Assembly: GCA_963975825.1 (NCBI GenBank)
Contig: CAXBIR010000001.1
Location: 26,699 to 90,698, forward strand
Direction of reading: 5' to 3'
Length of the DNA: 64,000 nt
From: an uncultured Polaribacter sp.
GTDB lineage: Bacteria; Bacteroidota; Bacteroidia; Flavobacteriales; Flavobacteriaceae
Positions 14,300-27,730 of the stretch are shown piece by piece; the stretch's first letter is position 1; the number at the start of each line of letters is the position of its first letter. A program made the position numbers and the translations under genes. The notes below the pieces were generated by a model, which did not search any database, was not told the origin of the DNA, and saw only the letters and a list, made by a program, of their open reading frames with translations.

Positions 14300-15211
14300 A
14301 TGTATTTACAGAAAATTAAGAAGCATTTATTAACAGTAACTTTATTAATATTCTCTATAGTTATCTATGGGCAAAATACTTTACCTATTAGTCATGTTGA
14401 CGATATTGATCCAATTTCGGGAATAGAAGACGTAGAACTTAAAGCAATACTTGTAAAAGAAATAAACTCTAATAAAAAATGGAAACGTTTAGTTGCGGGT
14501 AAACAAATGTCTTTAGGAATTGTAGATCTTAGTAATCCTAATAAATTTAGGTATGCAGGTATGAATGATAATTTTATGATGTATGCTGCAAGTTTACCTA
14601 AAATAGCTATTTTATTAGCAGCCATGGATGCTATAGAAAATGGAGAAATGGAATATACAGATGAAATTAAAAAAGATTTACGATTAATGATAAGTAAATC
14701 GAATAACCAAGCATCTACAAGAATGATTGATAGACTTGGTTATAAAAAAATTGAAGATGTTCTAAGAGCTCCAAAAAATAAATTATATGATGAGAATGTA
14801 GGAGGAGGTCTTTGGGTTGGTAAAAGGTATGCAGCATCTGGTAAGAGAAACCCAGACCCATTAAAAGGGCTTAGTCATGCAGCAACAACAAGACAGGTTT
14901 GTAGTTTTTATTACCAATTAGCGTTAGGTAATTTAATTAGCACAGAACGTTCTGCAGAAATGTTAGAAATTATGAAAGATCCTAAATTACATCATAAGTT
15001 TGTAAACACGTTAGATAAAATAGCACCCAAAGCAACTATTTATAGAAAATCTGGTTCTTGGAGAAACTATCATTCAGATTCTGCATTAGTTTGGGGACCA
15101 GAAAGAAAATATATTATTGTAGCTTTAATAGACAATGATTATGGTGAACAAATTATTAGAAATTTAGTAAAACCGCTAGAAAAGGTATTAAAAAAAGAAC
15201 GTTCTTTATAG
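14300..15211 (+). CDS. Exported serine hydrolase, class A beta-lactamase/PBP fold
   Basis: Signal peptide ...IYG|Q; SLPK (SxxK, Ser98), SNN (SxN) and KSG motifs. Confidence 0.85.
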   Translation: MYLQKIKKHLLTVTLLIFSIVIYGQNTLPISHVDDIDPISGIEDVELKAILVKEINSNKKWKRLVAGKQMSLGIVDLSNPNKFRYAGMNDNFMMYAASLPKIAILLAAMDAIENGEMEYTDEIKKDLRLMISKSNNQASTRMIDRLGYKKIEDVLRAPKNKLYDENVGGGLWVGKRYAASGKRNPDPLKGLSHAATTRQVCSFYYQLALGNLISTERSAEMLEIMKDPKLHHKFVNTLDKIAPKATIYRKSGSWRNYHSDSALVWGPERKYIIVALIDNDYGEQIIRNLVKPLEKVLKKERSL

Positions 15212-15232: not shown

Positions 15233-18046
15233 GTGAGAAAAATTATAACAAAAACTTTTGGCTTAAGAGATGATGAAATACGCATCTCTTTTTTAATGCT
15301 CTTATATATCTTTATAGTTATTACTGTTTTGTTAATTGTAAAACCTACAGTTAATGCACTTTTTGTTTCCAAATTAGGCGCAGATAATTTACCATTTGGT
15401 TATTTATTAGTAGCAAGTGTTGCTGTTTTATCATCTTATTTTTACAATAAAGCAATTAGAGTTTTTTCGCTTGTTAAAGTAACAGTAATATCTCTTATTG
15501 TTTTTTGCTTAGCTTTTATAGCTCTTGGTTTAGTTATTAAGTATGCTTTAGTAAATACTTGGGTTCTGTATTTTTACTATACTTTTATTTCTCTTTTTGC
15601 TGTGGTTGCAACATCGCAATTTTGGTTGTTTGCCAATATGGTTTTTAATGCTAGAGAAGCAAAAAGAAATTTTGGTTTTATTGGAGCAGGAGCCATTGCT
15701 GGAGGAATTTTTGGTGGCTATTTAACAAGTATAATTGCTACAACATTTGGTAATGAATTTGCTATTTTTCTTTCAGCAATATTAATTTTACTTTGTATTC
15801 CTATTTTAAAGAAAGTATATAATTTAAAAATTAAGTTTTTAAATACCTTTAAGAGAAAACAAGTAATTGCAGACCAAGAAAATTTAGAAAGTTCTTCTTT
15901 AAGACTAATTTTAAAATCTAAACATCTAACGTATATTGCTTTAATTACCGGAATTGGAGTAGTTGTTGCAAAGTTGGTAGATTTTCAGTTTAGCGATTTT
16001 GCTCAAAAAGCAATGCCAGATTCTGATGATTTAGCCGCTTTTTTTGGTTTTTGGTTCTCAACTTTTAATGTTTTAGCATTGGTTATTCAACTATTTTTAA
16101 CCAACAAGATATTAACTAAATTAGGTGTTTCATCAACTTTATTAATTTTACCATTAACAATTGCACTTGGAAGTTTATTATTTTTAACGTTTCCAGAACT
16201 TTGGGTTTTAATTATTATAAAAGGTATAGATGGTAGTGCAAAACAATCTGTTAATAAAGCGGCCGTAGAATTGTCTATTATGCCAATTCCTATTCAAATT
16301 AAAAACCAAGCAAAATCTTATATAGATGTTGTTATAGATAGTGTTGCTACAGGTTTTGCAGGCTTTTTATTAATTTTTTTAATTAAAAGATTAGACTTAG
16401 ATACCTCTTATATTACCGTAATTATTTTACTATTCACCTTTGTTTGGATTCTCTTTATTTATCGTTTAAGAGAAGCTTACTTTTCTTCTTTTAAAGAAAA
16501 TATTCAAAAAACATTAACTACAGAATTCAATAAAAGTAAAAAGAATGAAAATACAATTTCAGACATTAAAAGTATATTTATTAACGGAGATGAAACTTCT
16601 ATTTTAAACGCATTAGATCGACTAAAAGATTACAAACAATCTTCTTTTAATAACTCTGTGGTAAAGCTGTTAGAGCATCCTTCAAATAAAGTAAAAGCAA
16701 GAGCAATAGAGTACTTAGATGCTTTTGAAGAGGTAGATGTTTTAGGTAAAATTGAAGAACTAGTTTATGTTAAAGACGACTTGTTAGTATATGTTTCTTT
16801 AGATTATATTTTAGCGCATTCGCCAATTACAGATGAGTCGTTTTTTAATAAATATTTAAATCATACTAATGAATATATTTCTAACGGAGCTTTACTTTCT
16901 TTATCTAAACAGAGTTTTAATAATGCTAAATTAGGTAATAAATACAATGTTTTAAGCAGATTAGAAGAGAAGGTAATAGCTTTAAATAAAGGCGATTTAT
17001 CTGATAGAAAAGAAGTTTTAGCAGGTTTATTAATGAGTATAGCTTATGCTAGAATGACTGATTATTATCATTTGATAAGCAAACATTTAAAAGATGAAAA
17101 TTCTTACATTGTTAAATTCGCAACAATTTCTGCAGGAATTACTTCTGATGAGATATTTATTGAAGATTTGTTAGATTTACTGTCAGTAAAAAAACACAGA
17201 AAAAGGGCCATTAAAGCACTCAGAAATTATGGACCAAAAATTATTGATTTTATATTTAAGTTAGATAAAAAAGGAATTTTAAAACCATCAACAAAAAAGT
17301 ATCTTCCTAAGATTATAGAATCTTTTAATAACGAAAAAGCATTAAGAGTTTTAATACGCCTTTTAAGAAATAAAAATGCTTTAACAAGGTTATATGCTTC
17401 TAACTCATTAATAAAAATACTTAAGAAAAACACTAATTTGTCTGTTGCTCCTAGAGTTATTAAAAACCAAATTTTAAGAGAAAGTAGTTATTATAAAAAT
17501 ACTTTAGAAATTATAGCTTCTTTACAACACTTAATTAACAAAGATCTTGATAATAAAGAGGGTTTAGAACTTTGTGAAGCAAGAGTAAATTTAATACCAG
17601 AATTAGAAATTTTACTAGACAATAATTTAAAATGCATTTTTAACTTACTAAGTCTTGTTTATAATGAAGAAGACATAAAAATGACTTATGTTGGTATACA
17701 AAGTGAAATAAAAGATGCTAAAATTAATTCTTTAGAGTTTTTAGATAATATTTTGCAGCGTAAAATAAAAACAATGATTTTACCAATTATAGAGCATTAT
17801 GTGGTTGATGATAAAAATTATAAATCTTCTGTTATAAATTTAAACATAATTAGAGAGAGAAAACTTTTACAGAGAATTGTAAGAATGGGTAATTTAAAAC
17901 TAAAAATTCTTGTTATTAAATACGTGGAAGTATCTAATAACAAGAATTTAATTGGTGTTTTGTTGCCGTTAAGTAAGTTTAAAAATATTGAAGTTAAAGA
18001 ATTGGCAACAAAAACATATCACTTATTTATTTCCAATAACAATTAA
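15233..18046 (+). CDS. NTT/TLC (Npt1/Npt2 ATP/ADP translocase family) transporter fused to a HEAT-like helical repeat domain
   Basis: GTG start; ~12 TM helices with FWLFAN..FNAREAKRNFG and IMPIP..IKNQAKSYIDVV; soluble C-terminal ~520 aa with LLEHPSNKVKARAIEYL-type repeats. Confidence 0.8.
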   Translation: MRKIITKTFGLRDDEIRISFLMLLYIFIVITVLLIVKPTVNALFVSKLGADNLPFGYLLVASVAVLSSYFYNKAIRVFSLVKVTVISLIVFCLAFIALGLVIKYALVNTWVLYFYYTFISLFAVVATSQFWLFANMVFNAREAKRNFGFIGAGAIAGGIFGGYLTSIIATTFGNEFAIFLSAILILLCIPILKKVYNLKIKFLNTFKRKQVIADQENLESSSLRLILKSKHLTYIALITGIGVVVAKLVDFQFSDFAQKAMPDSDDLAAFFGFWFSTFNVLALVIQLFLTNKILTKLGVSSTLLILPLTIALGSLLFLTFPELWVLIIIKGIDGSAKQSVNKAAVELSIMPIPIQIKNQAKSYIDVVIDSVATGFAGFLLIFLIKRLDLDTSYITVIILLFTFVWILFIYRLREAYFSSFKENIQKTLTTEFNKSKKNENTISDIKSIFINGDETSILNALDRLKDYKQSSFNNSVVKLLEHPSNKVKARAIEYLDAFEEVDVLGKIEELVYVKDDLLVYVSLDYILAHSPITDESFFNKYLNHTNEYISNGALLSLSKQSFNNAKLGNKYNVLSRLEEKVIALNKGDLSDRKEVLAGLLMSIAYARMTDYYHLISKHLKDENSYIVKFATISAGITSDEIFIEDLLDLLSVKKHRKRAIKALRNYGPKIIDFIFKLDKKGILKPSTKKYLPKIIESFNNEKALRVLIRLLRNKNALTRLYASNSLIKILKKNTNLSVAPRVIKNQILRESSYYKNTLEIIASLQHLINKDLDNKEGLELCEARVNLIPELEILLDNNLKCIFNLLSLVYNEEDIKMTYVGIQSEIKDAKINSLEFLDNILQRKIKTMILPIIEHYVVDDKNYKSSVINLNIIRERKLLQRIVRMGNLKLKILVIKYVEVSNNKNLIGVLLPLSKFKNIEVKELATKTYHLFISNNN

Positions 18047-19356
18047 TTGTCACTTTCATCTTTATCACTTTTATACTCCTCTTCTTTAATAACTGGTTTT
18101 TTAGCAACATTTGTTTCATCTATAATATCGTCTATTTTACTAGCCATGTACATGTGTGCCCCAGCAGAATTCTTATTTAAAACGTTAGACATTAAACAAA
18201 CAATGTATTTTAAACCATTAGGATGTTCTACTATAATTACAGAATTCATATAGTTAAAAACATTACCAGCGTAACTTTTACAATCAGGGTTTTTCTCTCT
18301 ATCACATTTGTAATAACTACCAGATTTAAAATAAACAGCTGCACTGTCTAACCTTGGCGATTTTGCATATCTAATTCTTCTATCCGTTAAATAAAGCAAT
18401 CTTTTCATCTCTAAACTAGATTCTTTATCTACCACATTACCTTGCTCTAATTGAACTAAAAACTTCATTAAACCTTTAGGCGTACCAATGCTTCCTCCTT
18501 TTCTACCTACATATTTTCCTGCAGGTCTTGTAAACATTCCTCCTAATTTCCATTCGTCTTCTTTAATACCTAGTTTTCTTAAAGGCTCATTAACAACAGA
18601 GTTAGCTAGGTTTGTAAGAGAATCTCTAGAAGTTTCTTTAAAGTAGTTTTCTGCTTTTTCTGCATCCAAGAAAAAGTAATCTTGTCCAAATGCAGCCATT
18701 AGCATAGCTTCTCTGTACATAACGCTTGCTGCGCCATTATTACTTACAGAAACCATATGATCTAACCACTCGTAAAGAGAAAATTCATCACTTGCAATTA
18801 CCTGTCTTTTGGTTAATTTATCTTTTTCAATATCGTAAACTGGTATTGTATGATGATCTCCTGTTCCCCAATATCTAGAAGTTACTTTTATATTTTTTAA
18901 ATATCCAGCTCTGTCTTCCCAAGAATTAGGGCAAAGTTTTTGTAGTTGATCAAAAACAGCTAATAAAACGGCTATTTTACCAACACTTCCTGGTTGGTAA
19001 CCTACATTTTCTCTATGTTCTGCGTATCTTAATTTGTCAGGATTACTCATATCCATAACTGTCATAGAATAAGCTCCTGCAGGAATAATTCTACTTAGTT
19101 TTCTTTCAAAATCTTTATCTACAACAAGTAAATCTTTAACACTATCTTTATTTCTATTAACTAAGTTTAATTTAATATCTGCTAATTTTTTATAAGCTCC
19201 AGCAGGTATTCTATTATACTTAACACTATCTAACTGAAATTTTCTAAGCTGATACAATCTTGCAATTCCTGTTGTTTCATACCCATCTATAGGGTATTTA
19301 ATAAAACCAAGTGATGTTACTATTAAAACGATTAATATGATGTTTTTTACTCTCAT
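18043..19356 (-). CDS. Exported serine hydrolase, class A beta-lactamase/PBP fold, with large insertion
   Basis: CAT at 19354-19356 (minus strand; track mislabelled). N-terminal signal/anchor; SVGK (Ser124), SNN and KSG motifs. Confidence 0.8.
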   Translation of the reverse strand: MRVKNIILIVLIVTSLGFIKYPIDGYETTGIARLYQLRKFQLDSVKYNRIPAGAYKKLADIKLNLVNRNKDSVKDLLVVDKDFERKLSRIIPAGAYSMTVMDMSNPDKLRYAEHRENVGYQPGSVGKIAVLLAVFDQLQKLCPNSWEDRAGYLKNIKVTSRYWGTGDHHTIPVYDIEKDKLTKRQVIASDEFSLYEWLDHMVSVSNNGAASVMYREAMLMAAFGQDYFFLDAEKAENYFKETSRDSLTNLANSVVNEPLRKLGIKEDEWKLGGMFTRPAGKYVGRKGGSIGTPKGLMKFLVQLEQGNVVDKESSLEMKRLLYLTDRRIRYAKSPRLDSAAVYFKSGSYYKCDREKNPDCKSYAGNVFNYMNSVIIVEHPNGLKYIVCLMSNVLNKNSAGAHMYMASKIDDIIDETNVAKKPVIKEEEYKSDKDESDN

Positions 19357-19357
19357 T

Positions 19358-22267
19358 TTATATTTTTTCTGTTAGCTTAATTTCTGTATTACTTTCTACT
19401 TTTGGCGCTATTGAGTTTAAATAATCTGAACTTTTAGCTTGTTTATTTTCTACAAATGGTCTTATCTGAAACAACCAAAGTTTATTGTCTTTAAATCCAA
19501 ATTCAACATCATAAGCATGTGATTCTTCAGTAGATTTATTTCCAATTTTATTTCTAATTTCAGAAGCCAGTTCTCTAATGTCATTCACATTACTTGTATT
19601 TAATATTGGCTGATTAAATGTTGTATAATATTTTTTTGTACTTCCTGTTGTTGGTAAACGTATATAATCTGGTTGTCTGGCAGGACTAAGTAAATAACTA
19701 CTTTCTGCTGTTATTAATCTTGTTTCTGCAGATTGCCCATCTACAGCGCCACCAGCTCCTCTACTAAATGCAACTGTTAAGTCGTTTTCAGAACCTTCAT
19801 TAATACCTTTTGTAATCATAACGCCAGAATAATCTACATCTACACTTGGTATTATTAATATTGATGGATATACATTTTCTGGATTTAATAAGTATTGCTG
19901 ACGCCACTTAAAACTTCTTTCTGTGTAAGCAGAAGCCCAAACTTGTTTAATTCCTTGAATAATTTTTTCTTCTTTTAAAATATTAAATAACGTTAAATTT
20001 AAGCCAGCTCCAGTAAATTCTTTTAAGTCTTCCATATTGGTGTCGCTTCTTAAGAATACAGGTACATTTCCTAATTTATCTCCAAATACATTTTTAAAAT
20101 TATCTTTTAAATCATCCGTAAAACTTTCGTCTAAATTGATGTTTAAAATAGCAGCATGTAATTCTGATAAAGAATTTATTAGAAACTTTTCTACTGCTTC
20201 ATCTGAAGTATTATTGCTTTTTAATTCTTTCGCTTTTGTAAAAGTTGCATTTAAAAATTCCCAATAACTTTTATTTTTATTAGGCATTTCTTTGTTCATG
20301 TGAGATTTAAAAATTCCAAACGGAATAATTATTCCTTCAACTACTTTATTTGGAAATAAGTTTTTTAACTCTCCTAAATTAGCAGCTTTTGGGCCGCATA
20401 AAATACCAGAATCTGTAGCTTTTACATCTCTCATGTTAATAATTTTAGAAACATCTAACTTTAATTTGTCAGTTGGTACTTCAATCATATTTTTAGTTCT
20501 CTCCTTCTTATCAAATAATTTTTTCTCTTCAGCAGTCATTTCATTTTCTAATTTTAAAATGACGTTTCCTTTATTGGAAACTGCGTAAAAAACGTTTTTA
20601 TCGGTGTACTTTTCTAGAGATTTTAAGTTTTCATTTGATAAAGCAGCATTAGGTATTCCTAAGTTTCTTGCTAATAATTGTACATGAGAAACTAAATTTC
20701 CTTCAGAAACAGTCATAATTCCTGCAACTGGTTTTAAATCTGCAGGTGGTTTTTGAAAAATATAAATGTTGTTTGTATTTACTTCAACTTTATCTGGGTT
20801 ACCATCTACAACAATTAATTTACCAAATGCATAACCAGGGTTTAAACCTCTTATAGCGCCTTGGTTAGTAATACTCATTACATTGTTATTTACTTCAGAA
20901 ATTTTTGCAGCAAAATTATTTAGTTTGCTAACAGTTTCCCCTAAATTTAAAGTAATAGAATTTCTAATTCTATCGTCTATAAAACCGTAAGCTAAAGACT
21001 CAAAAGCTGCGTATTCATTTACATCTTCTTGGTAATTTGCTTTTACTAAAGAAGTACTCCATTCTACAATTCTTCTAGCATTTGTAACTAGAGAATTTAA
21101 CTCTCCTAAAGTTGTTTTTTCTTTATTTAAAGCAGAGGAAAAAACAGGTTTTACTACATCAAATTCCCAAGCTTCTACAAGACCGGTTGCGTAGGAAGCA
21201 CAGGTTAAAGTTTGTGTTTTTAAAATTGTTTCTTCTAATGTATCAGTATTCCAATTTTGACTTTCGATTAATAAAATTTTTTCTAATTGATTTGTTAAAT
21301 CTAAAAGGATTAAACGGTCTTTACTATCTTTAAATAACGCAATATTATATCTTAAAAAATCTAAATTATCTGTAATTTTTATAACAATATCTTTTGCAGA
21401 AAAGCTAGTTTTATCTTCATTAATAAAAGCTTTTAAATTTTTAAGAACTTCATTATCATCATTAACTTTAGATAGTTCTTTTGAAATGGTTTTATAGTTT
21501 AATGGCGCATAAAACTCATTCATGGTACTTAATAGTCTGTCAAAAAGTTTTTTTTCCTTAATAGAAATTTTAGAAGCATTTTTCTTGATGTAATTCTGAA
21601 CTAAATAAATATCTGTCTTTTGTGGATTTCCATGAATTTTAATTCTAATATCCATAAAGTCAGGAATTTCTTCAGCTAATATTTTAGACTCGCTTCGCAT
21701 TAATTGCGCAATATTAGAATCTCCATTATGTGGAATATCTTTCAAAGATTGTCTAATTAAGTAATAATTAGAGTTTAAAAAAGAATCGTCTTTTAAAACA
21801 GTTTCATAAAATTCCTTTCCCCAAGCTTCTTCATCTTCAGATTGAATAGCACCTCTATAATATTGTCCTTTTTTTAAAACCCAACCATTATCTAAGCTTG
21901 CTAAATATAGTCCAATTTGATATTGTTTTAATCTGCTAAAATTATGTGTAGCATCTAAAAAATCTGTTGTTTTTAAACTAGCTAATATTTCACCAAAAAA
22001 TAAATGATTACTCTTTCTTAAATCTAATGCAGATTGTTTAAAAGATGCATGTTGAATTCCCCCACCTATAGAATCTGGGCAAGGGTCTTTAGAATCTCTA
22101 ACAGAACCATCTTTACAGAACCATTTAATTCTGTAATATGGACCTCTGATATCATTTTTGTAAGAATCTATTAATTGTTTTATATCGTTATTACTTTTTT
22201 TCTGTGAAGTAGCTTTTAAGCTAAAAAGCAATACAATTGTAAAGGTAAGTAGTAGTTTTTTTTTCAT
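19358..22267 (-). CDS. Signal-peptide-bearing PEP-utilizing/dikinase-family protein (helical domain, phospho-His swivel domain, C-terminal ATP-grasp)
   Basis: CAT at 22265-22267. MKKKLLL...ATS|Q; GNLVSHVQLLARNLGIP (His528); GPKAANLGEL, LRSDTNMEDL..FTGAG, VWASAY, SGVMIT and DVEFGF...LFQIRP. Confidence 0.85.
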   Translation of the reverse strand: MKKKLLLTFTIVLLFSLKATSQKKSNNDIKQLIDSYKNDIRGPYYRIKWFCKDGSVRDSKDPCPDSIGGGIQHASFKQSALDLRKSNHLFFGEILASLKTTDFLDATHNFSRLKQYQIGLYLASLDNGWVLKKGQYYRGAIQSEDEEAWGKEFYETVLKDDSFLNSNYYLIRQSLKDIPHNGDSNIAQLMRSESKILAEEIPDFMDIRIKIHGNPQKTDIYLVQNYIKKNASKISIKEKKLFDRLLSTMNEFYAPLNYKTISKELSKVNDDNEVLKNLKAFINEDKTSFSAKDIVIKITDNLDFLRYNIALFKDSKDRLILLDLTNQLEKILLIESQNWNTDTLEETILKTQTLTCASYATGLVEAWEFDVVKPVFSSALNKEKTTLGELNSLVTNARRIVEWSTSLVKANYQEDVNEYAAFESLAYGFIDDRIRNSITLNLGETVSKLNNFAAKISEVNNNVMSITNQGAIRGLNPGYAFGKLIVVDGNPDKVEVNTNNIYIFQKPPADLKPVAGIMTVSEGNLVSHVQLLARNLGIPNAALSNENLKSLEKYTDKNVFYAVSNKGNVILKLENEMTAEEKKLFDKKERTKNMIEVPTDKLKLDVSKIINMRDVKATDSGILCGPKAANLGELKNLFPNKVVEGIIIPFGIFKSHMNKEMPNKNKSYWEFLNATFTKAKELKSNNTSDEAVEKFLINSLSELHAAILNINLDESFTDDLKDNFKNVFGDKLGNVPVFLRSDTNMEDLKEFTGAGLNLTLFNILKEEKIIQGIKQVWASAYTERSFKWRQQYLLNPENVYPSILIIPSVDVDYSGVMITKGINEGSENDLTVAFSRGAGGAVDGQSAETRLITAESSYLLSPARQPDYIRLPTTGSTKKYYTTFNQPILNTSNVNDIRELASEIRNKIGNKSTEESHAYDVEFGFKDNKLWLFQIRPFVENKQAKSSDYLNSIAPKVESNTEIKLTEKI

Positions 22268-22414: not shown

Positions 22415-23407
22415 TTATTGTTTTAAGAAGGTGTAAGTCTGTTTATTTTGCTGAATATAAACCTCTTTACAACTTGTAGGGTGAATAAAATTATACGTTT
22501 CTAAATGATTAAAATTAGTTTTTTCTGCATAAAACAAACCTTCAAAATCTTTAATTCCATCAGAATTATATCTAGATATTTTGTAAGCACCTAAATCAAT
22601 TTTGTCTTCAATTTTAAACCAAGCACCACTTCCAATTCCTCCTAACCAAGTTCCGTTTTCTAATTTAAAAACCTTTAAATTAGGTTTTTCTGTTCCTATT
22701 AAATTGGGTTCTCCTTCAAACTTGTTTAAAAAAGAAGATTTATATTCTTTAACAATAGATCTATTTTTATAGTATGTAATTTCTTGATTATAAACATTAA
22801 AGATTTTATTGTCTGTATTTGCTTTTATTACGTTTCCAATAGGACTTGGTGTTAATAAATTAGATTTTTTTAATTGTTTACCAATTTTTTTATTCTCTGA
22901 AGAAGCAATAATTGTATCTGTTACAAATCTTGCACAATTTGTTCCGTTTTTAATAAAAGCACCATAAGGTATTTCTTTTTCGTCTATTAATTCTTGAATA
23001 AATTTTTGCGCTTTTTTAAAATTTATTTCATTGTGAATGCTAGCTACTAATCTACCATCTCCATGTGTTTTCTCAGGATGATTTTCTATCCAAAGTAAAA
23101 TTTCTTCAACGTTTAAAATTTCATTATTCTTAAAATTTGCCTTAATTGTAACTTCTAATTCTGGGTCTGTTTCTTTACATCTAACTCTACCATTTCCGTA
23201 ACTTGTAATGTATCTTCCAAAATCGAAATAATTTATTTCTGAATTGTTTTTTTGAAGTAATAACAACGCAGCATGACCAGCTTGTACAGCATGCTCGCCA
23301 CCAATACCAATTTTAGGCCAAAAATTACTTAAAGTTTCCCAGTAAGCAGGCCTTACAATCGTATCTGGATACGAAAGTATAATGATGATTCCATCAGAAA
23401 TTTGCAT
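22415..23407 (-). CDS. DUF6695-like protein; predicted permuted papain-like His/Cys catalytic pair
   Basis: CAT at 23405-23407; AGHAALL, YFDFGRY and GTNCARFV. Confidence 0.65.
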   Translation of the reverse strand: MQISDGIIIILSYPDTIVRPAYWETLSNFWPKIGIGGEHAVQAGHAALLLLQKNNSEINYFDFGRYITSYGNGRVRCKETDPELEVTIKANFKNNEILNVEEILLWIENHPEKTHGDGRLVASIHNEINFKKAQKFIQELIDEKEIPYGAFIKNGTNCARFVTDTIIASSENKKIGKQLKKSNLLTPSPIGNVIKANTDNKIFNVYNQEITYYKNRSIVKEYKSSFLNKFEGEPNLIGTEKPNLKVFKLENGTWLGGIGSGAWFKIEDKIDLGAYKISRYNSDGIKDFEGLFYAEKTNFNHLETYNFIHPTSCKEVYIQQNKQTYTFLKQ

Positions 23408-23408
23408 T

Positions 23409-23654
23409 TTATGAATTATTAAAGATAGCTTTTAGTAAAATCTGAAATGTTTTAAAAGCGAAGAAAATTGTAAAAATTATTAGTATTGCTGCAACTGTAA
23501 TAATAATGTAAGATAAAAACTCTTGCGGTGTGTTATTAAACTTTTTTAAAGCTTTAAAACCCATTGTAAGCGTAATTGGCGATGCTATAAAAAGGAAAAT
23601 TAAAATACCCAAGTATTTTAAACCTTTACCTAATAAGTTAACGTTTGTACTCAT
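23409..23654 (-). CDS. Small 2-TM protein (DUF6095-like)
   Basis: 81 aa; GKGLKYLG...ASP followed by two hydrophobic helices. Confidence 0.65.
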   Translation of the reverse strand: MSTNVNLLGKGLKYLGILIFLFIASPITLTMGFKALKKFNNTPQEFLSYIIITVAAILIIFTIFFAFKTFQILLKAIFNNS

Positions 23655-24463
23655 TTTTTATAATTTTTTATAGAATTTCTAACATTACCATACTTTTCTA
23701 ATAATGTAGCAGCTTCAGTTTGGTCGATATTTAATTCTTTAGCTAACATTTTTTGACCTCTTTCTACTAACTTGTTGTTAGATAGTTGCATATCTACCAT
23801 TTTGTTACCTTTAATTTTTCCTAATTGAATCATTGTAGCTGTAGAAATCATATTTAGAACTAATTTTTGTGCGGTTCCAGCTTTCATTCTCGAGCTTCCA
23901 GTAACAAACTCTGAGCCAACAACAACTTCTATAGGGTACATAGAAACTTTAGCCAAAGGACTATTATTATTACAAGCAATACAACCAGTAATAATATTAT
24001 TCTCGTTACATTTTTCTAAAGCAGAAATTACATAAGGCGTTGTGCCAGATGCAGCAATACCAATTACAACATCTTTTTCTGTTATTTGGTGTTCTTTTAA
24101 GTCTAACCAACCTTGCGTTTTAGAATCTTCTGCAAATTCTACAGCTTTTCTAATAGCAATATCTCCACCAGCAATAATACCAACTACAAGTTCATGTGGT
24201 ACACCAAAAGTTGGCGGACATTCTGAAGCATCTACAACACCTAATCTACCAGAAGTTCCTGCTCCAATGTAAAATAATCTTCCTCCTTCTTTTAATTTTT
24301 TAACAATATTAGTTGTTAGAATTTCTATTTGAGGTAAAGATTTTTCTACAGCAATTGGTACTGTTTTATCTTCGTTATTAATGTTGCTTAATAATTCTTT
24401 AACACTCATCTTTTCTAGATGGTTGTATTTAGAATCTTGTTCTGTAGTTTTTATAAAAGTCAT
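23651..24463 (-). CDS. murQ: N-acetylmuramic acid 6-phosphate etherase
   Basis: GAGTSGRLGVVDASECPPTFG, GIAASGTTPYV and GSSRMKAGTAQKLVLNMIST. An alternative ATG lies at 24466. Confidence 0.93.
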   Translation of the reverse strand: MTFIKTTEQDSKYNHLEKMSVKELLSNINNEDKTVPIAVEKSLPQIEILTTNIVKKLKEGGRLFYIGAGTSGRLGVVDASECPPTFGVPHELVVGIIAGGDIAIRKAVEFAEDSKTQGWLDLKEHQITEKDVVIGIAASGTTPYVISALEKCNENNIITGCIACNNNSPLAKVSMYPIEVVVGSEFVTGSSRMKAGTAQKLVLNMISTATMIQLGKIKGNKMVDMQLSNNKLVERGQKMLAKELNIDQTEAATLLEKYGNVRNSIKNYKK

Positions 24464-24467
24464 CATT

Positions 24468-24516: not shown

Positions 24517-25347
24517 TTAGTTTTTTTCTACCAAATTAACACTAAAAGTGTCTATTTCTGAAATATGAAAATAACCTAAAGGAAAATTAGCTTCGTTTGT
24601 AGTGTTTATCATATTTCCTAATAAAGAAGAAGGAACTGATTGAAAAGGACCACCACCATTTACACCACTTTGATCTAATAATATTCTAAAATAGGTGTAA
24701 TAGTCTTTAGAGATTCCAGCCATTTTTATATTTACAGTTGTAGGTAATTCGATATCATCTTCATCATAAAAAAAAGAAAAATTATAATCTGTACCATTAA
24801 AAAAACGATCTTCTATGGTTAAAAATCTATTGTTAGTAAAATCGAATAAATAATAATTTTCTTCATTTATATTATCGCTAAAATCAACTTTTATCTCTGT
24901 TTCTTTTCCACTGAAAAGTGTCTTATCACCTTGTTCTACGCTGTTAAAAACTGTAGATTTAATTTTTGTAGCTTTCCCTTTATAGGTTTGGTTATTATAT
25001 GCTACAGTTAATTCATATGTAATATTATCTTCTGGTACAAATGAAGTTGCAGGTGTGTAATTACCATCTGCATTTGTGTCTAAAAAAGGGATTACAGAAT
25101 TGTTAGATAAATTTGTTAAAAATACGTTCGCGTTTGTTACAGTTGGTATGTTTTCTTCAAAATAATCTGCAGATAATTTTAATTTTACAACTGTATTAGC
25201 AACAACAGGGCTTTCATCAAATAGAACTTCAAAAGAGGCATCTATTATTAATTTAGGCTCTATAGTTGGTAAATCTATATCTACTACTTTTTCACAATTA
25301 GAAAAAAGTAATACTATTAAAACAGGAAGTATGTATATTTTTTTCAT
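24517..25347 (-). CDS. DUF4249 family lipoprotein
   Basis: Lipobox FSNC followed by EKVVDIDL; NMINTT...PLGYF C-terminus; follows a TonB-dependent receptor. Confidence 0.8.
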   Translation of the reverse strand: MKKIYILPVLIVLLFSNCEKVVDIDLPTIEPKLIIDASFEVLFDESPVVANTVVKLKLSADYFEENIPTVTNANVFLTNLSNNSVIPFLDTNADGNYTPATSFVPEDNITYELTVAYNNQTYKGKATKIKSTVFNSVEQGDKTLFSGKETEIKVDFSDNINEENYYLFDFTNNRFLTIEDRFFNGTDYNFSFFYDEDDIELPTTVNIKMAGISKDYYTYFRILLDQSGVNGGGPFQSVPSSLLGNMINTTNEANFPLGYFHISEIDTFSVNLVEKN

Positions 25348-25351
25348 TGCT

Positions 25352-27730
25352 TTAAAATTTAAAATTATAGGTTACAGATGGTACAAGACCAAAAATTGAT
25401 GTCTGAATTGCTTCGTTTCTAAAGGTTTCTTGGTTTTGTTTAAAAGCTAAAGAAGCAGCGTTTTGTCTTCCGTATAAATTATAAATTCCGAAAACCCATT
25501 CTCCTTGCCACTTTCTGTTTTTATTTTTTTCTGGTGTTAAAGTTGCAGAAATATCTAATCTATGATATGCAGGAAGTCTGTCTGCATTTCTTCTATTATC
25601 ATCATAAATTGGTACATTTAAACCTTGTACTTCATATTGGCCAACTGGGTAATTTGTTGGTTGTCCTGTTTGAAAAACAAAGTTACTATTGAATTTCCAT
25701 TTCTCGTTTAACTTATAACTGGCGTTAATAGAAAAATCGTGCGTTTTATCATAAGGTGTGCTGTACCATTGGCTATTATTAATTCCTGGTTCGTTTGCAT
25801 TTCTACCTTCTGTTAATTGTTCAGATCTAGAAAGTGTGTAAGAAATCCATCCTTGAAAATTTCCTTCGTTCTTCTTAAATAGTACTTCTAAACCATAAGC
25901 TCTGGCTTTACCATTTAAAATTACGGTTTCAATTTCATTATTAGCAATTAAGTTTGCTCCATTTATATAATCTATTCTATTCTGAATATCTTTGTAAAAA
26001 GCTTCTGTTTCTAAAGTGTATTTTCCGTCTTTAAAAGATTTAAAATAACCTACAGCATATTGATCTAAAAGTTGAGGTTTTACATATTTACCACTAGGCG
26101 TCCAAACATCTAATGGAGTAGGAGAGGCAGTATTAGAAAGTAAATGTAAATATTGTGCCATTCTATTGTAACTTGCCTTTACAGAAGTGTTATTGTCTAT
26201 AATATAAGACATAGAAACTCTTGGTTCAAAATTATTAAAACTTGCAATAGCATCGCTTCTTTTATAGTTTTCTGTACCTGTTGCTTCTGCAGATTCGTAT
26301 TTTTTAAATTCGGTATTGTAAATTACAGCTTCATCATTTGCATAGGTGTTTAGTTCATCTTGTCCTAATCTTGTAAAATTGCTAAAACGAACTCCATATT
26401 GTAGCCTAAAATTATCGCTAATTTTATGTTCTGCGTCTATATAAGCAGCAAATTCATTTGCATATTTATCTATAAGTTTTTCAGCTACAATACCAGAATC
26501 TTCTCTATTAGGAATAATTTCTCCTGGATTAAATTTTATATAAATATTGTTAACACCATAACTTAATTTTACTTTTTCGCTTACATAATGATTGAAATCA
26601 TACTTCAAATTGAAATTAGTTATACCAGAATCCCATTCGAAACCAACAAAGTCTAAAGTTAATCCGTAGAAATAATCCGAATAAATTAAAGATAAATTAG
26701 AGAAAAGTTTATCTGTAAAAAGATGATTCCAGCGTAAATTAACAACAGTGTTTCCATAAGTATTTACAAAATTATCGCTAATTCCAAAAACATCTTTACC
26801 AAAATAAGTAGATAAGAAAACGTTATTTCTATCGTTAAAACGGTAGTTAATTTTACTATTTAAATCGTAAAAATATGCTTTGTTATCATTATCAAAAAGA
26901 GGTAAAAATAAATGAGCATAAGAAGATCTTCCGCCAATTAAAAAAGAACTTTTTTCTTTTTCTAAAGGCCCTTCAATTAATAATCTAGAGGAAACTAAAC
27001 CAATACCGCCAGTAATACTAAAATCTTTACTGTTTCCTTCTTTTTGATAAATATCTAGTACAGAAGATAAACGGCCACCGTATTTTGCAGGAATTCCTCC
27101 TTTATATAATTTTACGTCTTTAATTACATCTGGATTAAAAACTGAGAAAAAACCAAATAAATGAGAAGAATTAAAAACAATAGCCTCGTCTAATAATATT
27201 AAGTTTTGATCTGCAGCGCCACCTCTTACATTAAAACCAGAAGCGCCTTCACCAGCACTTGTAACTCCTGGTAAAAGAATTAAAGATTTTATAATATCTG
27301 CTTCTCCAAGCACTACAGGAATCTGTTTTATTGTAGAAGATGTTAATCTATTAACGCTCATTTGTGGCGTTTTTAAATTAAGTTTTTCAATATTACTTTC
27401 TATAACAATTTCATTTAAACTCTCAGATTCCTCTTTTAATTTAAAGTTTTTAGATGTTTTTTCTAAAAGTTCTATATTTTCTACAAGTGTGGTGTAGCCT
27501 AAATAGCTTATTTGAAATTTGTAAGTTCCTTTTGGAATTGTAATTGAGTAAAAACCATATTCATTTGTGGTTGTTCCAGAGTTCAATTCAGGAAAATAGA
27601 TAGAAACGCCAATTAAGGTTTCATTATTAGAATCATCGTAAACTGTACCACTAAGTGTAATTTTTTCTTGTCCAAGCACCGATAAACTTATCAAAAAAAA
27701 GAGAAAAAATAATTTTTTAAAGTGTAGCAT
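25352..27730 (-). CDS. TonB-dependent receptor with N-terminal CarboxypepD_reg-like domain
   Basis: ETLIGVSI..., plug GEADIIKSLILLPGV...VRGG..DQNL, YGGRLSSV, and terminal YNFKF. Confidence 0.9.
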   Translation of the reverse strand: MLHFKKLFFLFFLISLSVLGQEKITLSGTVYDDSNNETLIGVSIYFPELNSGTTTNEYGFYSITIPKGTYKFQISYLGYTTLVENIELLEKTSKNFKLKEESESLNEIVIESNIEKLNLKTPQMSVNRLTSSTIKQIPVVLGEADIIKSLILLPGVTSAGEGASGFNVRGGAADQNLILLDEAIVFNSSHLFGFFSVFNPDVIKDVKLYKGGIPAKYGGRLSSVLDIYQKEGNSKDFSITGGIGLVSSRLLIEGPLEKEKSSFLIGGRSSYAHLFLPLFDNDNKAYFYDLNSKINYRFNDRNNVFLSTYFGKDVFGISDNFVNTYGNTVVNLRWNHLFTDKLFSNLSLIYSDYFYGLTLDFVGFEWDSGITNFNLKYDFNHYVSEKVKLSYGVNNIYIKFNPGEIIPNREDSGIVAEKLIDKYANEFAAYIDAEHKISDNFRLQYGVRFSNFTRLGQDELNTYANDEAVIYNTEFKKYESAEATGTENYKRSDAIASFNNFEPRVSMSYIIDNNTSVKASYNRMAQYLHLLSNTASPTPLDVWTPSGKYVKPQLLDQYAVGYFKSFKDGKYTLETEAFYKDIQNRIDYINGANLIANNEIETVILNGKARAYGLEVLFKKNEGNFQGWISYTLSRSEQLTEGRNANEPGINNSQWYSTPYDKTHDFSINASYKLNEKWKFNSNFVFQTGQPTNYPVGQYEVQGLNVPIYDDNRRNADRLPAYHRLDISATLTPEKNKNRKWQGEWVFGIYNLYGRQNAASLAFKQNQETFRNEAIQTSIFGLVPSVTYNFKF

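Follow-up and report, generated by a model that had tools for sequence, protein, structure and literature searches.

The window analysed here is a 64,000-nucleotide stretch of DNA from an uncultured Polaribacter sp. Four of its genes, two on each strand, concern us: one for a predicted exported dikinase (P0001), one for a transporter of the NTT family and two for serine enzymes with a penicillin-binding-protein (PBP) type fold. These genes and the parts of the dikinase are as follows.

14300..15211, plus strand: exported PBP-A-like serine enzyme of 303 aa, bla303 (PF13354, 72 bits)
15233..18046, plus strand: NTT-family (ATP/ADP-carrier-type) transporter with 12 TM segments and a cytoplasmic HEAT-repeat domain (Pfam TLC, MFS_1, HEAT_2)
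18043..19356, minus strand: PBP/class-A-beta-lactamase-fold serine enzyme of 437 aa, exported or membrane-anchored, bla437 (PF13354)
19358..22267, minus strand: gene of the exported permuted dikinase of 969 aa, P0001 (ORF list and translation, Pfam PPDK_N)
22205..22267, minus strand: Sec/SPase I signal peptide of the dikinase, residues 1-21, predicted cleavage between ATS and Q (sequence)
20858..22201, minus strand: all-helical N-terminal domain, residues 23-470, putative acceptor-binding domain (AF2 model)
20468..20857, minus strand: phospho-histidine swivel domain, residues ~471-600, with the putative catalytic H528 (invariant motif, weak PpsA alignment, beta-rich prediction)
19424..20398, minus strand: C-terminal ATP-grasp nucleotide-binding domain, residues 624-948 (PF01326)

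The dikinase is encoded on the minus strand; in the plus-strand frame, stops occur throughout 19358-22267. The domain order can be read directly from the protein: from the N- to the C-terminus it has a signal peptide, a Cys pair, a 448-aa all-helical N-domain, the H528 motif and a PPDK_N ATP-grasp. Our homologue search found more than 2,800 relatives, and this genome has a single copy of the gene. Scans for sigma-70 promoters and terminators did not find more sites than the same scans of shuffled sequence. We searched the literature on NTT-HEAT proteins, periplasmic ATP and kinases, signal-peptide-bearing water dikinases and the family's database name, and found no description of the enzyme or of the module that it belongs to.

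The first-pass annotation placed a C-terminal ATP-grasp from about residue 624 onwards, and Pfam agrees. PPDK_N (PF01326) matches residues 624-948 with an E-value of 6.7e-28 (98.4 bits, cut-off 27 bits). In Foldseek this domain matches the ATP domains of RPH, HpeI, PpsA and PPDK (E about 1e-10), and the nearest solved structures are RPH, HpeI and phenolic phosphate synthetase. When we compared the family profile with PDB sequences, the matches fell on the ATP domains of PpsA (8a8e, E 4e-32) and RPH only. K627, R740, E746/D747, E922, Q934 and R936 are conserved in the ATP-grasp, and the ATP-site residues are invariant or near-invariant across phyla.

Many genome records name, or misname, the family "phosphoenolpyruvate synthase". 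These annotations, and the fact that PpsA models are the best NCBIfam matches, are what can be said for an ordinary cytoplasmic enzyme of this kind, and the ATP-grasp is indeed homologous to that of PpsA/PPDK (E 3e-27). However, NF005057 reaches only 94.9 bits against an equivalog cut-off of 598, with the ATP-grasp alone aligning, and TIGR01418 reaches 78.9 bits against 739.75. P0001 also has no PEP/pyruvate-binding TIM barrel, nor any further Pfam domain even at E≤10; its domain order is permuted, its acceptor domain is a different one and its export signal is conserved. PEP synthase (PpsA, EC 2.7.9.2) is refuted at the sequence level, and we see practically no chance that this reading is correct. 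That the barrel is missing and that the protein is not a PEP synthase had both been proposed earlier. The other dikinase identities that we considered fare no better. Residues ~608-950 match the N-terminus of the PpsA, PigC and RPH models, which means that the order is permuted, and the scores lie far under the cut-offs (46.7 bits against 999 for the RPH model NF041857). We rejected all three identities.

The phospho-His motif is intact, as claimed before, and the recomputed codon of H528 lies at the same position, 20684-20686. In all 48 Flavobacteriaceae homologues compared, H528 and the 20-residue motif around it do not vary. Among 44 cluster representatives with 25–53% identity H528 is at least 90% conserved, and across phyla (n=74 sequences) the motif is almost invariant. 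Two Pfam models match the same place with scores below their thresholds: PEP-utilizers (PF00391) with 13.2 bits (E 0.071, threshold 23.1 bits) and GWD1_pHisD (PF22973) with 12.1 bits (E 0.26, threshold 27 bits). Hence, we take the support for this domain from the invariant motif, from the beta-rich fold that the structure model predicts for residues 473-585, and from a weak match in phmmer to the His domain of PpsA, which shares the S/T-H phospho-His motif. With these directly observed catalytic motifs, the data favour the view that P0001 is equipped for catalysis as a His-swivel dikinase.

The signals for export can likewise be observed directly. The N-terminus starts with a positively charged MKKK, followed by a run of 13 residues without charge and by ATS and Q, which bears out the Sec signal proposed in the first-pass annotation. 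A signal peptide with a small-x-small site and Gln at +1 occurs in all 19 genera examined; counted by sequence, 45 of the 48 Flavobacteriaceae homologues have it. Gln at this position after the signal peptide is known as the Bacteroidetes Q-rule (PMC5837995, PMC10653852). Homologues beyond Bacteroidota have hydrophobic, signal-like N-terminal leaders, several of which end in small/Ala residues. We also count in favour of export that the first downstream Met does not occur before residue 190. The N-terminal Cys pair noted previously is C51 and C63 (codons 22115-22117 and 22079-22081); it lies inside the N-domain and is at least 90% conserved among the 44 cluster representatives. The prediction that P0001 is exported draws support from signal peptides and a Cys pair that are both conserved, and from agreement with the Q-rule. 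Since no other Pfam domain is found at E≤10, there is no T9SS C-terminal domain in P0001. Each of the 80 best cross-phylum matches belongs either to a lineage whose name is that of a diderm group or to an unclassified MAG.

The genes next to the dikinase are part of the story. The bla437 gene begins 1 bp downstream of the dikinase gene, and the two probably share an operon. On the other strand bla303 lies upstream of the NTT-HEAT gene, and these two genes also probably share an operon. Both serine enzymes have complete sets of motifs that are invariant across phyla: S124-x-x-K127, S205-x-N207, K344-S-G and the C351/C359 pair in bla437, and S98-x-x-K101, S134-x-N136 and K250-S-G in bla303, which has a signal peptide with Q at +1. 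The best solved relative of the bla303 profile is the cyanobacterial PBP-A Tll2115 (E 8e-5), a class-A-beta-lactamase-like DD-peptidase; the two share the fold signature and the SxxK/SxN/KxG motifs, although the similarity is very distant. For the 437-aa paralogue, which differs from PBP-A by an additional N-terminal region and the conserved Cys pair, we found no significant solved relative. In the NTT-HEAT protein the transporter spans residues ~1-446 and the HEAT domain residues ~450-937. TLC (PF03219) scores 53.4 bits (cut-off 21), and the family profile matches the solved NTTs 9j3n (E 7e-37) and AtNTT1 (9j3j, E 1e-28) over profile positions 7-410. Judged by these profile matches to solved ATP/ADP carriers, the partner is a true NTT.

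What is newly found here is the genomic context, that is, a four-gene module around the dikinase. Both the module and its co-inheritance are direct observations. Of 20 Flavobacteriaceae genera examined, 19 have the two PBP-type genes and NTT-HEAT beside the dikinase, and the four-gene module recurs in Pseudomonadota, Desulfobacterota, Myxococcota, Nitrospirota and Spirochaetota. Among the 38 complete cross-phylum loci (at least 6 kb on both sides of the dikinase), 38 contain bla437, 37 bla303, 30 the NTT and 30 all four genes. The NTT is not adjacent in the remaining 8 loci; of the genomes of this kind, 10 of 10 tested encode an NTT elsewhere. In other phyla the NTT partner comes without the HEAT domain. 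Within the Flavobacteriaceae 30 of 151 genera carry the dikinase, and 29 of these 30 carry NTT-HEAT, the exception being a 610-contig assembly. NTT-HEAT is found in none of the 121 dikinase-negative genera (Fisher p = 3e-30, uncorrected for relatedness and based on phylogenetically non-independent counts).

No fifth gene is conserved: all-against-all clustering of the ORFs in 80 cross-phylum loci gave only the four families, the remaining clusters being antisense shadow ORFs, ABC ATPases and PanB. Neighbours that could have served as functional context (MurQ, a TseH-like protein, DUF6095 and a TonB receptor) lie beside the dikinase in 0 of 20 genera, and the hint that the first-pass annotation took from the adjoining MurQ gene fails with them. 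The module with an NTT and two exported PBP-type enzymes, which is absent from that annotation, is the strongest evidence that we have. Taken together, P0001 is very probably an exported dikinase within a conserved module.

What could such an enzyme phosphorylate? The helical N-terminal region that had been noticed before would be expected to bind the acceptor. The AF2 model of this 448-aa domain (pLDDT 91, pTM 0.84) has 20 helices and a small sheet, and the domain is restricted to the P0001 architecture (440 clusters). Searching the PDB with this high-confidence model gave no fold relative at E≤0.001, and a search with the full-length model (pLDDT 70.9) gave none either. In the structural comparison with GWD and RPH that had been suggested, the ATP domain matched RPH, whereas the N-domain matched no PDB fold. 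D432 and R435 are near-invariant in the alignments and lie ~95 residues before the catalytic His.

The likeness in domain order to the plant glucan dikinases GWD and PWD, in contrast to PpsA, PigC and RPH, relative to which P0001 is permuted, stands in light of both the models and the recent literature. GWD/PWD and P0001 have in common the order of specificity domain, His domain and C-terminal PPDK-type ATP domain; in the linear order of GWD the His domain precedes the C-terminal ATP-binding domain (PMC13553574). The central domain of the recently solved potato enzyme StGWD1 is in a similar position and almost the same size as the N-domain of P0001 (444 and 448 aa, 20 helices each), and its proposed residues E900/E901/R904 lie 92 residues before H992 (PMC13553574). 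The presumed chemistry is the same as well: ATP + acceptor + H2O -> AMP + acceptor-P + Pi, by way of a swivelling His. The differences are also considerable. GWD and PWD are plastidial enzymes of plants and algae (GWD1 is EC 2.7.9.4) with an N-terminal starch-binding CBM45 or CBM20, whereas P0001 is bacterial, carries a Sec signal and shows no CBM when scanned with Pfam at E≤10. Beyond the ATP domain the sequences have no detectable similarity (GWD1_pHisD gives just 12 bits), and GWD/PWD lack the dedicated NTT and PBP-type partners. Neither Foldseek nor the PDB-sequence profile search returned a GWD entry, 9HA9/9QVI possibly being outside the sets searched. The GWD-associated Pfam model DUF7067 has an uninformative E 0.2 match at an unrelated genome position.

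One could argue from these parallels that P0001 is a glycan dikinase in the strict sense of GWD, phosphorylating hydroxyls of a polymeric envelope glycan. Candidates would be peptidoglycan strands (the C6-OH of MurNAc/GlcNAc), periplasmic glucans or ingested algal polysaccharide. Phosphorylation would change how the polymer packs or how readily lytic enzymes attack it, and this polymer would also be the one that the PBP-type enzymes remodel. The core of P0001 (a ~445-aa 20-helix domain, His and a C-terminal ATP domain) does parallel the StGWD1 catalytic core (PMC13553574), as does the spacing of the conserved residues to the His, and the partner enzymes are peptidoglycan-type. However, P0001 carries no carbohydrate-binding module of any kind, the conserved genes of the module include no glycoside hydrolase, and most of the Flavobacteriaceae that degrade polysaccharides lack the module (121 of 151 genera). 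We regard this strict version as unlikely.

A second comparison is with RPH and its relatives. These have three domains with a substrate domain that is not a TIM barrel, and if read circularly (ATP-grasp, substrate domain, His) their order equals that of P0001. They differ in that the ATP-grasp comes first and the His last, and in being cytoplasmic. The likeness in order, the ATP domain that is structurally nearest to RPH and HpeI, and the beta-lactamase fold of the partners would fit a system for inactivating antibiotics or xenobiotics in the periplasm, in which the dikinase phosphorylates a hydroxylated toxin while the partners hydrolyse or sense related compounds. We consider this very improbable, for the following reasons. 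First, besides the low score of the RPH model, Foldseek finds the N-domain unrelated in fold to the rifampin-binding domain of RPH. Second, the partners resemble a DD-peptidase-type PBP; with the class A beta-lactamase model NF033103 (cut-off 200 bits) the 303-aa enzyme scores 21.3 bits and the 437-aa enzyme has no match. Third, the module is chromosomal, with 0 plasmid matches at E≤1e-20, and its cross-phylum identity of 25–45% is the pattern of an old housekeeping module.

The PBP-type partners tilt the substrate question towards the cell envelope. An acceptor related to peptidoglycan is a possibility that we hold tentatively, somewhat short of an even chance given the sequence data. Of the earlier proposal of an extracytoplasmic kinase for a glycan, cell-wall fragment or antibiotic, export and dikinase hardware have held up, while the acceptor is still a list of candidates.

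Any periplasmic kinase faces the objection that there is no ATP in the periplasm, and the conserved module with its NTT offers an answer to this objection. NTTs work by antiport. As they are exchangers, and as ATP is high in the cytoplasm and none is available outside, the net flux would be outward. From the sequences, a modest balance of probability favours a supply of ATP by the NTT. Alternatively, the NTT might export no ATP and instead import a nucleotide or a phosphorylated product, as part of a scavenging system. In that case the exported enzyme would depend on a different donor, or it would make ATP from an external high-energy phosphate; the PPDK reaction is reversible. All characterised NTTs import nucleotides, and the NTT-HEAT fusion clade, to which the partner belongs by its TLC and HEAT matches, has been reported as uncharacterised, with no link to a dikinase or PBP-type enzyme described (Major et al. 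2017, PMC5381601). In contrast to that published clade, the NTT here is tied to an exported ATP-dependent enzyme. A water dikinase running in reverse would require a phosphoryl donor of PEP grade, which is unexpected outside the cell, and two acyl-serine enzymes would be left without a role. Scavenging therefore seems improbable to us.

The mechanism that we propose instead is a periplasmic His-swivel dikinase in a four-gene module, fed with ATP by the NTT. What we infer here is that ATP is the donor, which way the NTT transports, and what the substrate is. The C-terminal ATP-grasp would bind ATP. H528 on the mobile middle domain would accept the beta-phosphate, and the gamma-phosphate would leave as Pi, with AMP as the other product. 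Phosphorylated H528 would then swing to the 448-aa helical N-domain and phosphorylate the acceptor bound there, with D432 and R435 as the likeliest base and phosphate stabiliser. In the inner membrane the NTT would most likely send ATP out of the cytoplasm in return for AMP/ADP (+Pi) from the periplasm, which would fuel the dikinase. Both exported acyl-serine enzymes would act on the dikinase's substrate in the envelope, the best candidate being peptidoglycan or a molecule derived from it. We count against this proposal that the His domain scores below both Pfam thresholds, that the NTT is not adjacent in 8 of the 38 complete loci, that periplasmic ATP could escape via porins, that canonical NTTs import ATP, that no fold relative of the N-domain hints at a substrate, and that the PBP-type partners could have a target other than peptidoglycan. 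On the whole we lean, if only slightly, towards accepting the proposal as far as the supply of ATP by the NTT.

A bolder version is that some diderm bacteria deliberately energise their periplasm with NTT-exported ATP, and that the dikinase phosphorylates peptidoglycan itself, at a glycan C6-OH or a stem-peptide carboxylate. This is decidedly speculative and quite unlikely to be right as it stands. If it were, phosphorylation of the C6-OH would block attack by lysozyme-type enzymes and lytic transglycosylases, akin to O-acetylation. Phosphorylation of the carboxylate would yield an acyl-phosphate, from which the two PBP-type enzymes could form cross-links without needing D-Ala-D-Ala. In both cases this would be a new type of ATP-driven cell-wall chemistry beyond the cytoplasm.

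According to the textbooks, ATP is absent from the bacterial periplasm, and the phosphorylations, ligations and cross-linkings known there accordingly depend on donors activated beforehand, for example lipid-linked pyrophosphates, the D-Ala-D-Ala bond or phospholipid head groups. This rule is directly challenged by an exported enzyme whose ATP site and phospho-His relay are both intact and which is co-inherited with an NTT in at least six phyla, and the module suggests that the bacteria carrying it supply ATP to their periplasm. For the large NTT/NTT-HEAT clade found in free-living bacteria, this would be the first function that can be put to the test. It would also indicate a novel modification of the envelope, made jointly with two penicillin-binding-type enzymes.

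Our analysis indicates that this stretch of DNA very probably encodes an exported dikinase that is part of a conserved gene module. The open reading frame at 19358-22267, which the first-pass annotation had read as a secreted dikinase resembling plant glucan water dikinases (GWD), is genuine, but its strand is the minus strand; the plus-strand frame of the same coordinates is riddled with stops. The 969-aa product (P0001) carries the features noticed earlier: a signal peptide (MKKK, 13 uncharged residues, ATS/Q), a Cys pair (Cys51 and Cys63), a long helical stretch, an S-H motif with H528 (recomputed codon 20684-20686) and a C-terminal ATP-grasp domain (Pfam PPDK_N, residues 624-948, E 6.7e-28). 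It also lacks a PEP/pyruvate TIM barrel, as claimed. Even at E<=10, Pfam finds nothing beyond PPDK_N and a sub-threshold PEP-utilizers match on residues 511-539 (E 0.071); hence there is no TIM barrel, carbohydrate-binding module or T9SS C-terminal domain. The sole match in the genome to the GWD-specific His-domain model (GWD1_pHisD) falls on residues ~514-572 of P0001 and is weak (12 bits, E 0.26), which leaves the His domain below the threshold of both curated models. The domain order runs from a putative acceptor domain through the His domain to the ATP-grasp.

Could P0001 be a known dikinase? The NCBIfam models of PEP synthase (PpsA), PigC/RedH and rifampin phosphotransferase (RPH) cover only residues ~608-950, always through the N-terminal part of the model, and score 47-95 bits against cut-offs of 600-1350. 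It follows that the ATP-grasp, N-terminal in these models, has moved to the C-terminus in P0001, as first proposed, and that P0001 belongs to none of the three families; we rejected these identities because the ATP-grasp alone aligns, at such scores. By the defining membership tests of PpsA, RPH, PigC and GWD, P0001 falls outside all four. It shares the order of its catalytic core with GWD and the phosphoglucan water dikinases (PWD). With RPH, whose ATP domain is the nearest, it shares a non-barrel substrate domain. Judged by its sequence, P0001 is predicted to work like GWD/PWD and RPH but lies outside both families. We found no description of the exported dikinase or its four-gene module in the literature. 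Its nearest named relatives are from Polaribacter (87% identity), and the more than 2,800 homologues scored go under the name "PEP/pyruvate-binding domain-containing protein" or the erroneous "phosphoenolpyruvate synthase".

A full-length AF2 model of moderate quality (pLDDT 70.9) is helical at 26-456, beta-rich at 473-585 and an ATP-grasp at 626-945. Foldseek matched its ATP domain to that of RPH (also to HpeI, PpsA and PPDK, pyruvate phosphate dikinase; E ~1e-10), and nothing beyond this domain was matched. The N-domain (residues 23-470) modelled alone from a 74-sequence cross-phylum alignment (pLDDT 91, pTM 0.84) consists of 20 helices plus a small sheet of three strands bearing the Cys-pair region. 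Against the PDB it gave nothing at E<=0.001 (top match E 0.65, TM <0.2). The "central domain" of potato GWD1 has 444 aa and 20 helices, likewise without an evident counterpart in the PDB; the loop that links it to the His domain is very short, the ATP-binding domain comes next, and the His domain, seated on the central one, swings over to the ATP site (2026 paper, PMC13553574). Size, helix count and position are the same in the N-domain of P0001, a likeness taken from the published description rather than from a superposition. The GWD structures 9HA9 and 9QVI were not among the matches in either library searched, copies of which may not contain them. In GWD1, the proposed acceptor-site residues E900/E901/R904 lie 92 residues ahead of the catalytic His (PMC13553574); in P0001 a near-invariant D432/R435 pair (D-D-R-I-R) lies ~95 residues ahead of H528.

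H528 and ~20 residues around it do not vary among 48 Flavobacteriaceae sequences. H528 is also conserved at >=90% in 44 cluster representatives (25-53% identity), as are C51 and C63, and its motif is nearly invariant in the cross-phylum alignment (n=74). Conservation is similar for the ATP-site residues predicted from PpsA/PPDK: K627 (G-P-K-A-A-N-L-G), R740-S-D, E746/D747, E922 and Q934-x-R936-P. Conserved basic residues of the N-domain are R84, R138, R191, R208, H212, R306 and R435.

Export is predicted from conserved features. Homologues of 19/19 Flavobacteriaceae genera, and 45 of the 48 aligned family members, begin with a basic stretch followed by a hydrophobic core and a small-x-small/Gln site. 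In Bacteroidetes, such a site follows the Q-rule described for substrates of signal peptidase I (PMC5837995, PMC10653852). Representatives from other lineages have hydrophobic, signal-like leaders, several with small/Ala residues at the end. The first Met after the start of P0001 is residue 190, which lies in a conserved stretch; a truncated cytoplasmic version is therefore implausible. The conserved Cys pair, in a protein with few other Cys residues, would fit an oxidising compartment. Because P0001 has no T9SS domain, its predicted location in the Bacteroidota cell is the periplasm.

Three further genes adjoin the dikinase gene.

18043-19356, minus strand: 437-aa Beta-lactamase2-family protein (Pfam), immediately downstream of the dikinase gene
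15233-18046, plus strand, convergent: 937-aa TLC(NTT)+HEAT protein (Pfam)
14300-15211, plus strand: 303-aa Beta-lactamase2-family protein (Pfam), just upstream of the NTT-HEAT gene

NTT-HEAT and the 437-aa gene converge and share 4 bp where their 3' ends meet (18043-18046), and an inverted repeat with a 20-bp stem (17904-17949), terminator-like on the minus strand, lies within the 3' end of the NTT-HEAT gene. When we compared 20-kb neighbourhoods from 20 other Flavobacteriaceae genera (tblastn), both PBP-type genes (the 303-aa and 437-aa proteins) and NTT-HEAT adjoined the dikinase in 19. On the opposite side, directly upstream of the dikinase (22415-24466, minus strand), are a TseH-like (PF25218) + DUF6695 protein, a DUF6095 protein and the MurNAc-6-P etherase MurQ, followed at 24517-27730 (minus strand) by a DUF4249 protein beside a TonB-dependent receptor with a CarboxypepD_reg N-terminal domain and no obvious SusD partner. 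One could argue that the cell-wall-flavoured TseH-like, DUF6095 and MurQ genes belong to the module. We reject this, as 0/20 genera kept them beside the dikinase; DUF4249 and the TonB receptor were likewise found there in none.

Dikinase and NTT-HEAT are also inherited together. Among 151 Flavobacteriaceae genomes, one per genus, 30 have the dikinase, and in 29 of these NTT-HEAT is present at full length; the remaining one is a 610-contig assembly in which a 1.9-kb contig bears the dikinase. NTT-HEAT is missing from all 121 genomes that lack the dikinase, one of which carries just a plain 427-aa NTT. Fisher's p for the co-occurrence is 3e-30, which overstates the case because the genera are related. 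In one Flavobacteriaceae genome (G038), NTT-HEAT is present twice at full length.

The module extends beyond this family. The dikinase gene is present in 12 genomes of a 401-genome Bacteroidota sample; at the more distant loci both PBP-type genes are still adjacent, and an NTT is somewhere in the genome in 5/5 tested (four distant Bacteroidota and one Flavobacteriaceae). Searching 1.84 billion representatives by phmmer with just the N-domain as query gave 440 clusters. Every full-length match is ~930-1040 aa long with the domain at ~25-470, hence the N-domain is confined to this architecture. A one-genome-per-species scan yielded at least 589 dikinase loci. For the best 80 of these, the source lineages are Gamma-, Beta- and Zetaproteobacteria, Desulfobacterota, Myxococcota, Nitrospirota and one Spirochaetales MAG; cultured species among them are Agaribacterium haliotis, Parahaliea aestuarii and Parahaliea maris. 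When the ORFs of the same best 80 were screened with an HMM for each of the four families, the 437-aa type turned up at 75 loci, the 303-aa type at 66 and an NTT at 52. For the 38 of them with >=6 kb on both sides, the counts are 38, 37 and 30, with all four genes in 30. In five genomes tested where the NTT is not adjacent, strong homologues are encoded elsewhere (E 1e-81 to 1e-164). Outside Bacteroidota the NTT is usually plain (~410-450 aa, without HEAT), so the conserved partner is the membrane core and not the HEAT domain. Several genomes have at least two NTT homologues, often short and long side by side near the module (loci L091, L099, L122, L147; genomes G038, G547, G548, G550). The ORFs of the best 80 loci contained no fifth conserved gene, and the module was not found on known plasmids.

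What could the partners do? The NTT-partner profile matches both solved ATP/ADP carriers across approximately the whole 12-TM core (9j3n, E 7e-37; Arabidopsis NTT1 9j3j, E 1e-28). Family-wide, K37, K361 and D365 are invariant and K144, K330 and R370 nearly so; K361/D365 lie within a motif that the family has in common with both carriers. The clade of NTT-HEAT proteins has been reported but not characterised; its paper mentions no dikinase or lactamase-type neighbours (PMC5381601). Both PBP-type proteins keep their motifs invariant across phyla: S98/K101 (SxxK), S134/N136 (SxN) and K250-S-G in the 303-aa protein; S124/K127 (SxxK), S205/N207 (SxN) and K344-S-G in the 437-aa protein, which has an additional invariant Cys pair (C351/C359). 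Neither comes near the cut-off for a class-A beta-lactamase proper, a candidate we therefore rejected. The nearest solved relative of the 303-aa family is the cyanobacterial PBP-A Tll2115 (E 8e-5), a DD-peptidase. The 303-aa protein has a Q-rule signal peptide. The 437-aa protein has an N-terminal hydrophobic segment that contains a Cys in some genera, so it may be a lipoprotein or a signal anchor. The Cys (...C-S-A-F...), suggestive of a lipoprotein, is seen at the Flavobacteriaceae loci L039 and L041-L046; the window's copy has no Cys there. At residues ~20-35 of the 437-aa protein, directly after the segment, Y-P-I-D-G-Y...T-G-I-x-R-L is strongly conserved across phyla.

The dikinase cycle can be proposed from the established mechanism of PpsA, PPDK, GWD and RPH. 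ATP would bind at the C-terminal domain, H528 would take up a pyrophosphoryl or phosphoryl group as AMP and Pi are released, and the His domain would then swing to the helical N-domain and phosphorylate an acceptor bound there. NTTs are exchangers by family. Since ATP is abundant in the cytoplasm but not in the periplasm, the NTT of the module would run outward for ATP and bring back AMP/ADP and Pi, a flux that the cytoplasmic HEAT domain may gate in Bacteroidota. We lean slightly towards the NTT as the dikinase's ATP supply. The PBP-A-type partners and the many conserved Arg, His and Lys residues of the N-domain suggest an anionic envelope molecule as acceptor. This is speculative, with peptidoglycan or a muropeptide as leading candidate, and a peptidoglycan-related acceptor is a tentative proposal that we would rather doubt than assume. 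If ATP is indeed delivered to the periplasm, the whole system would be categorically new.
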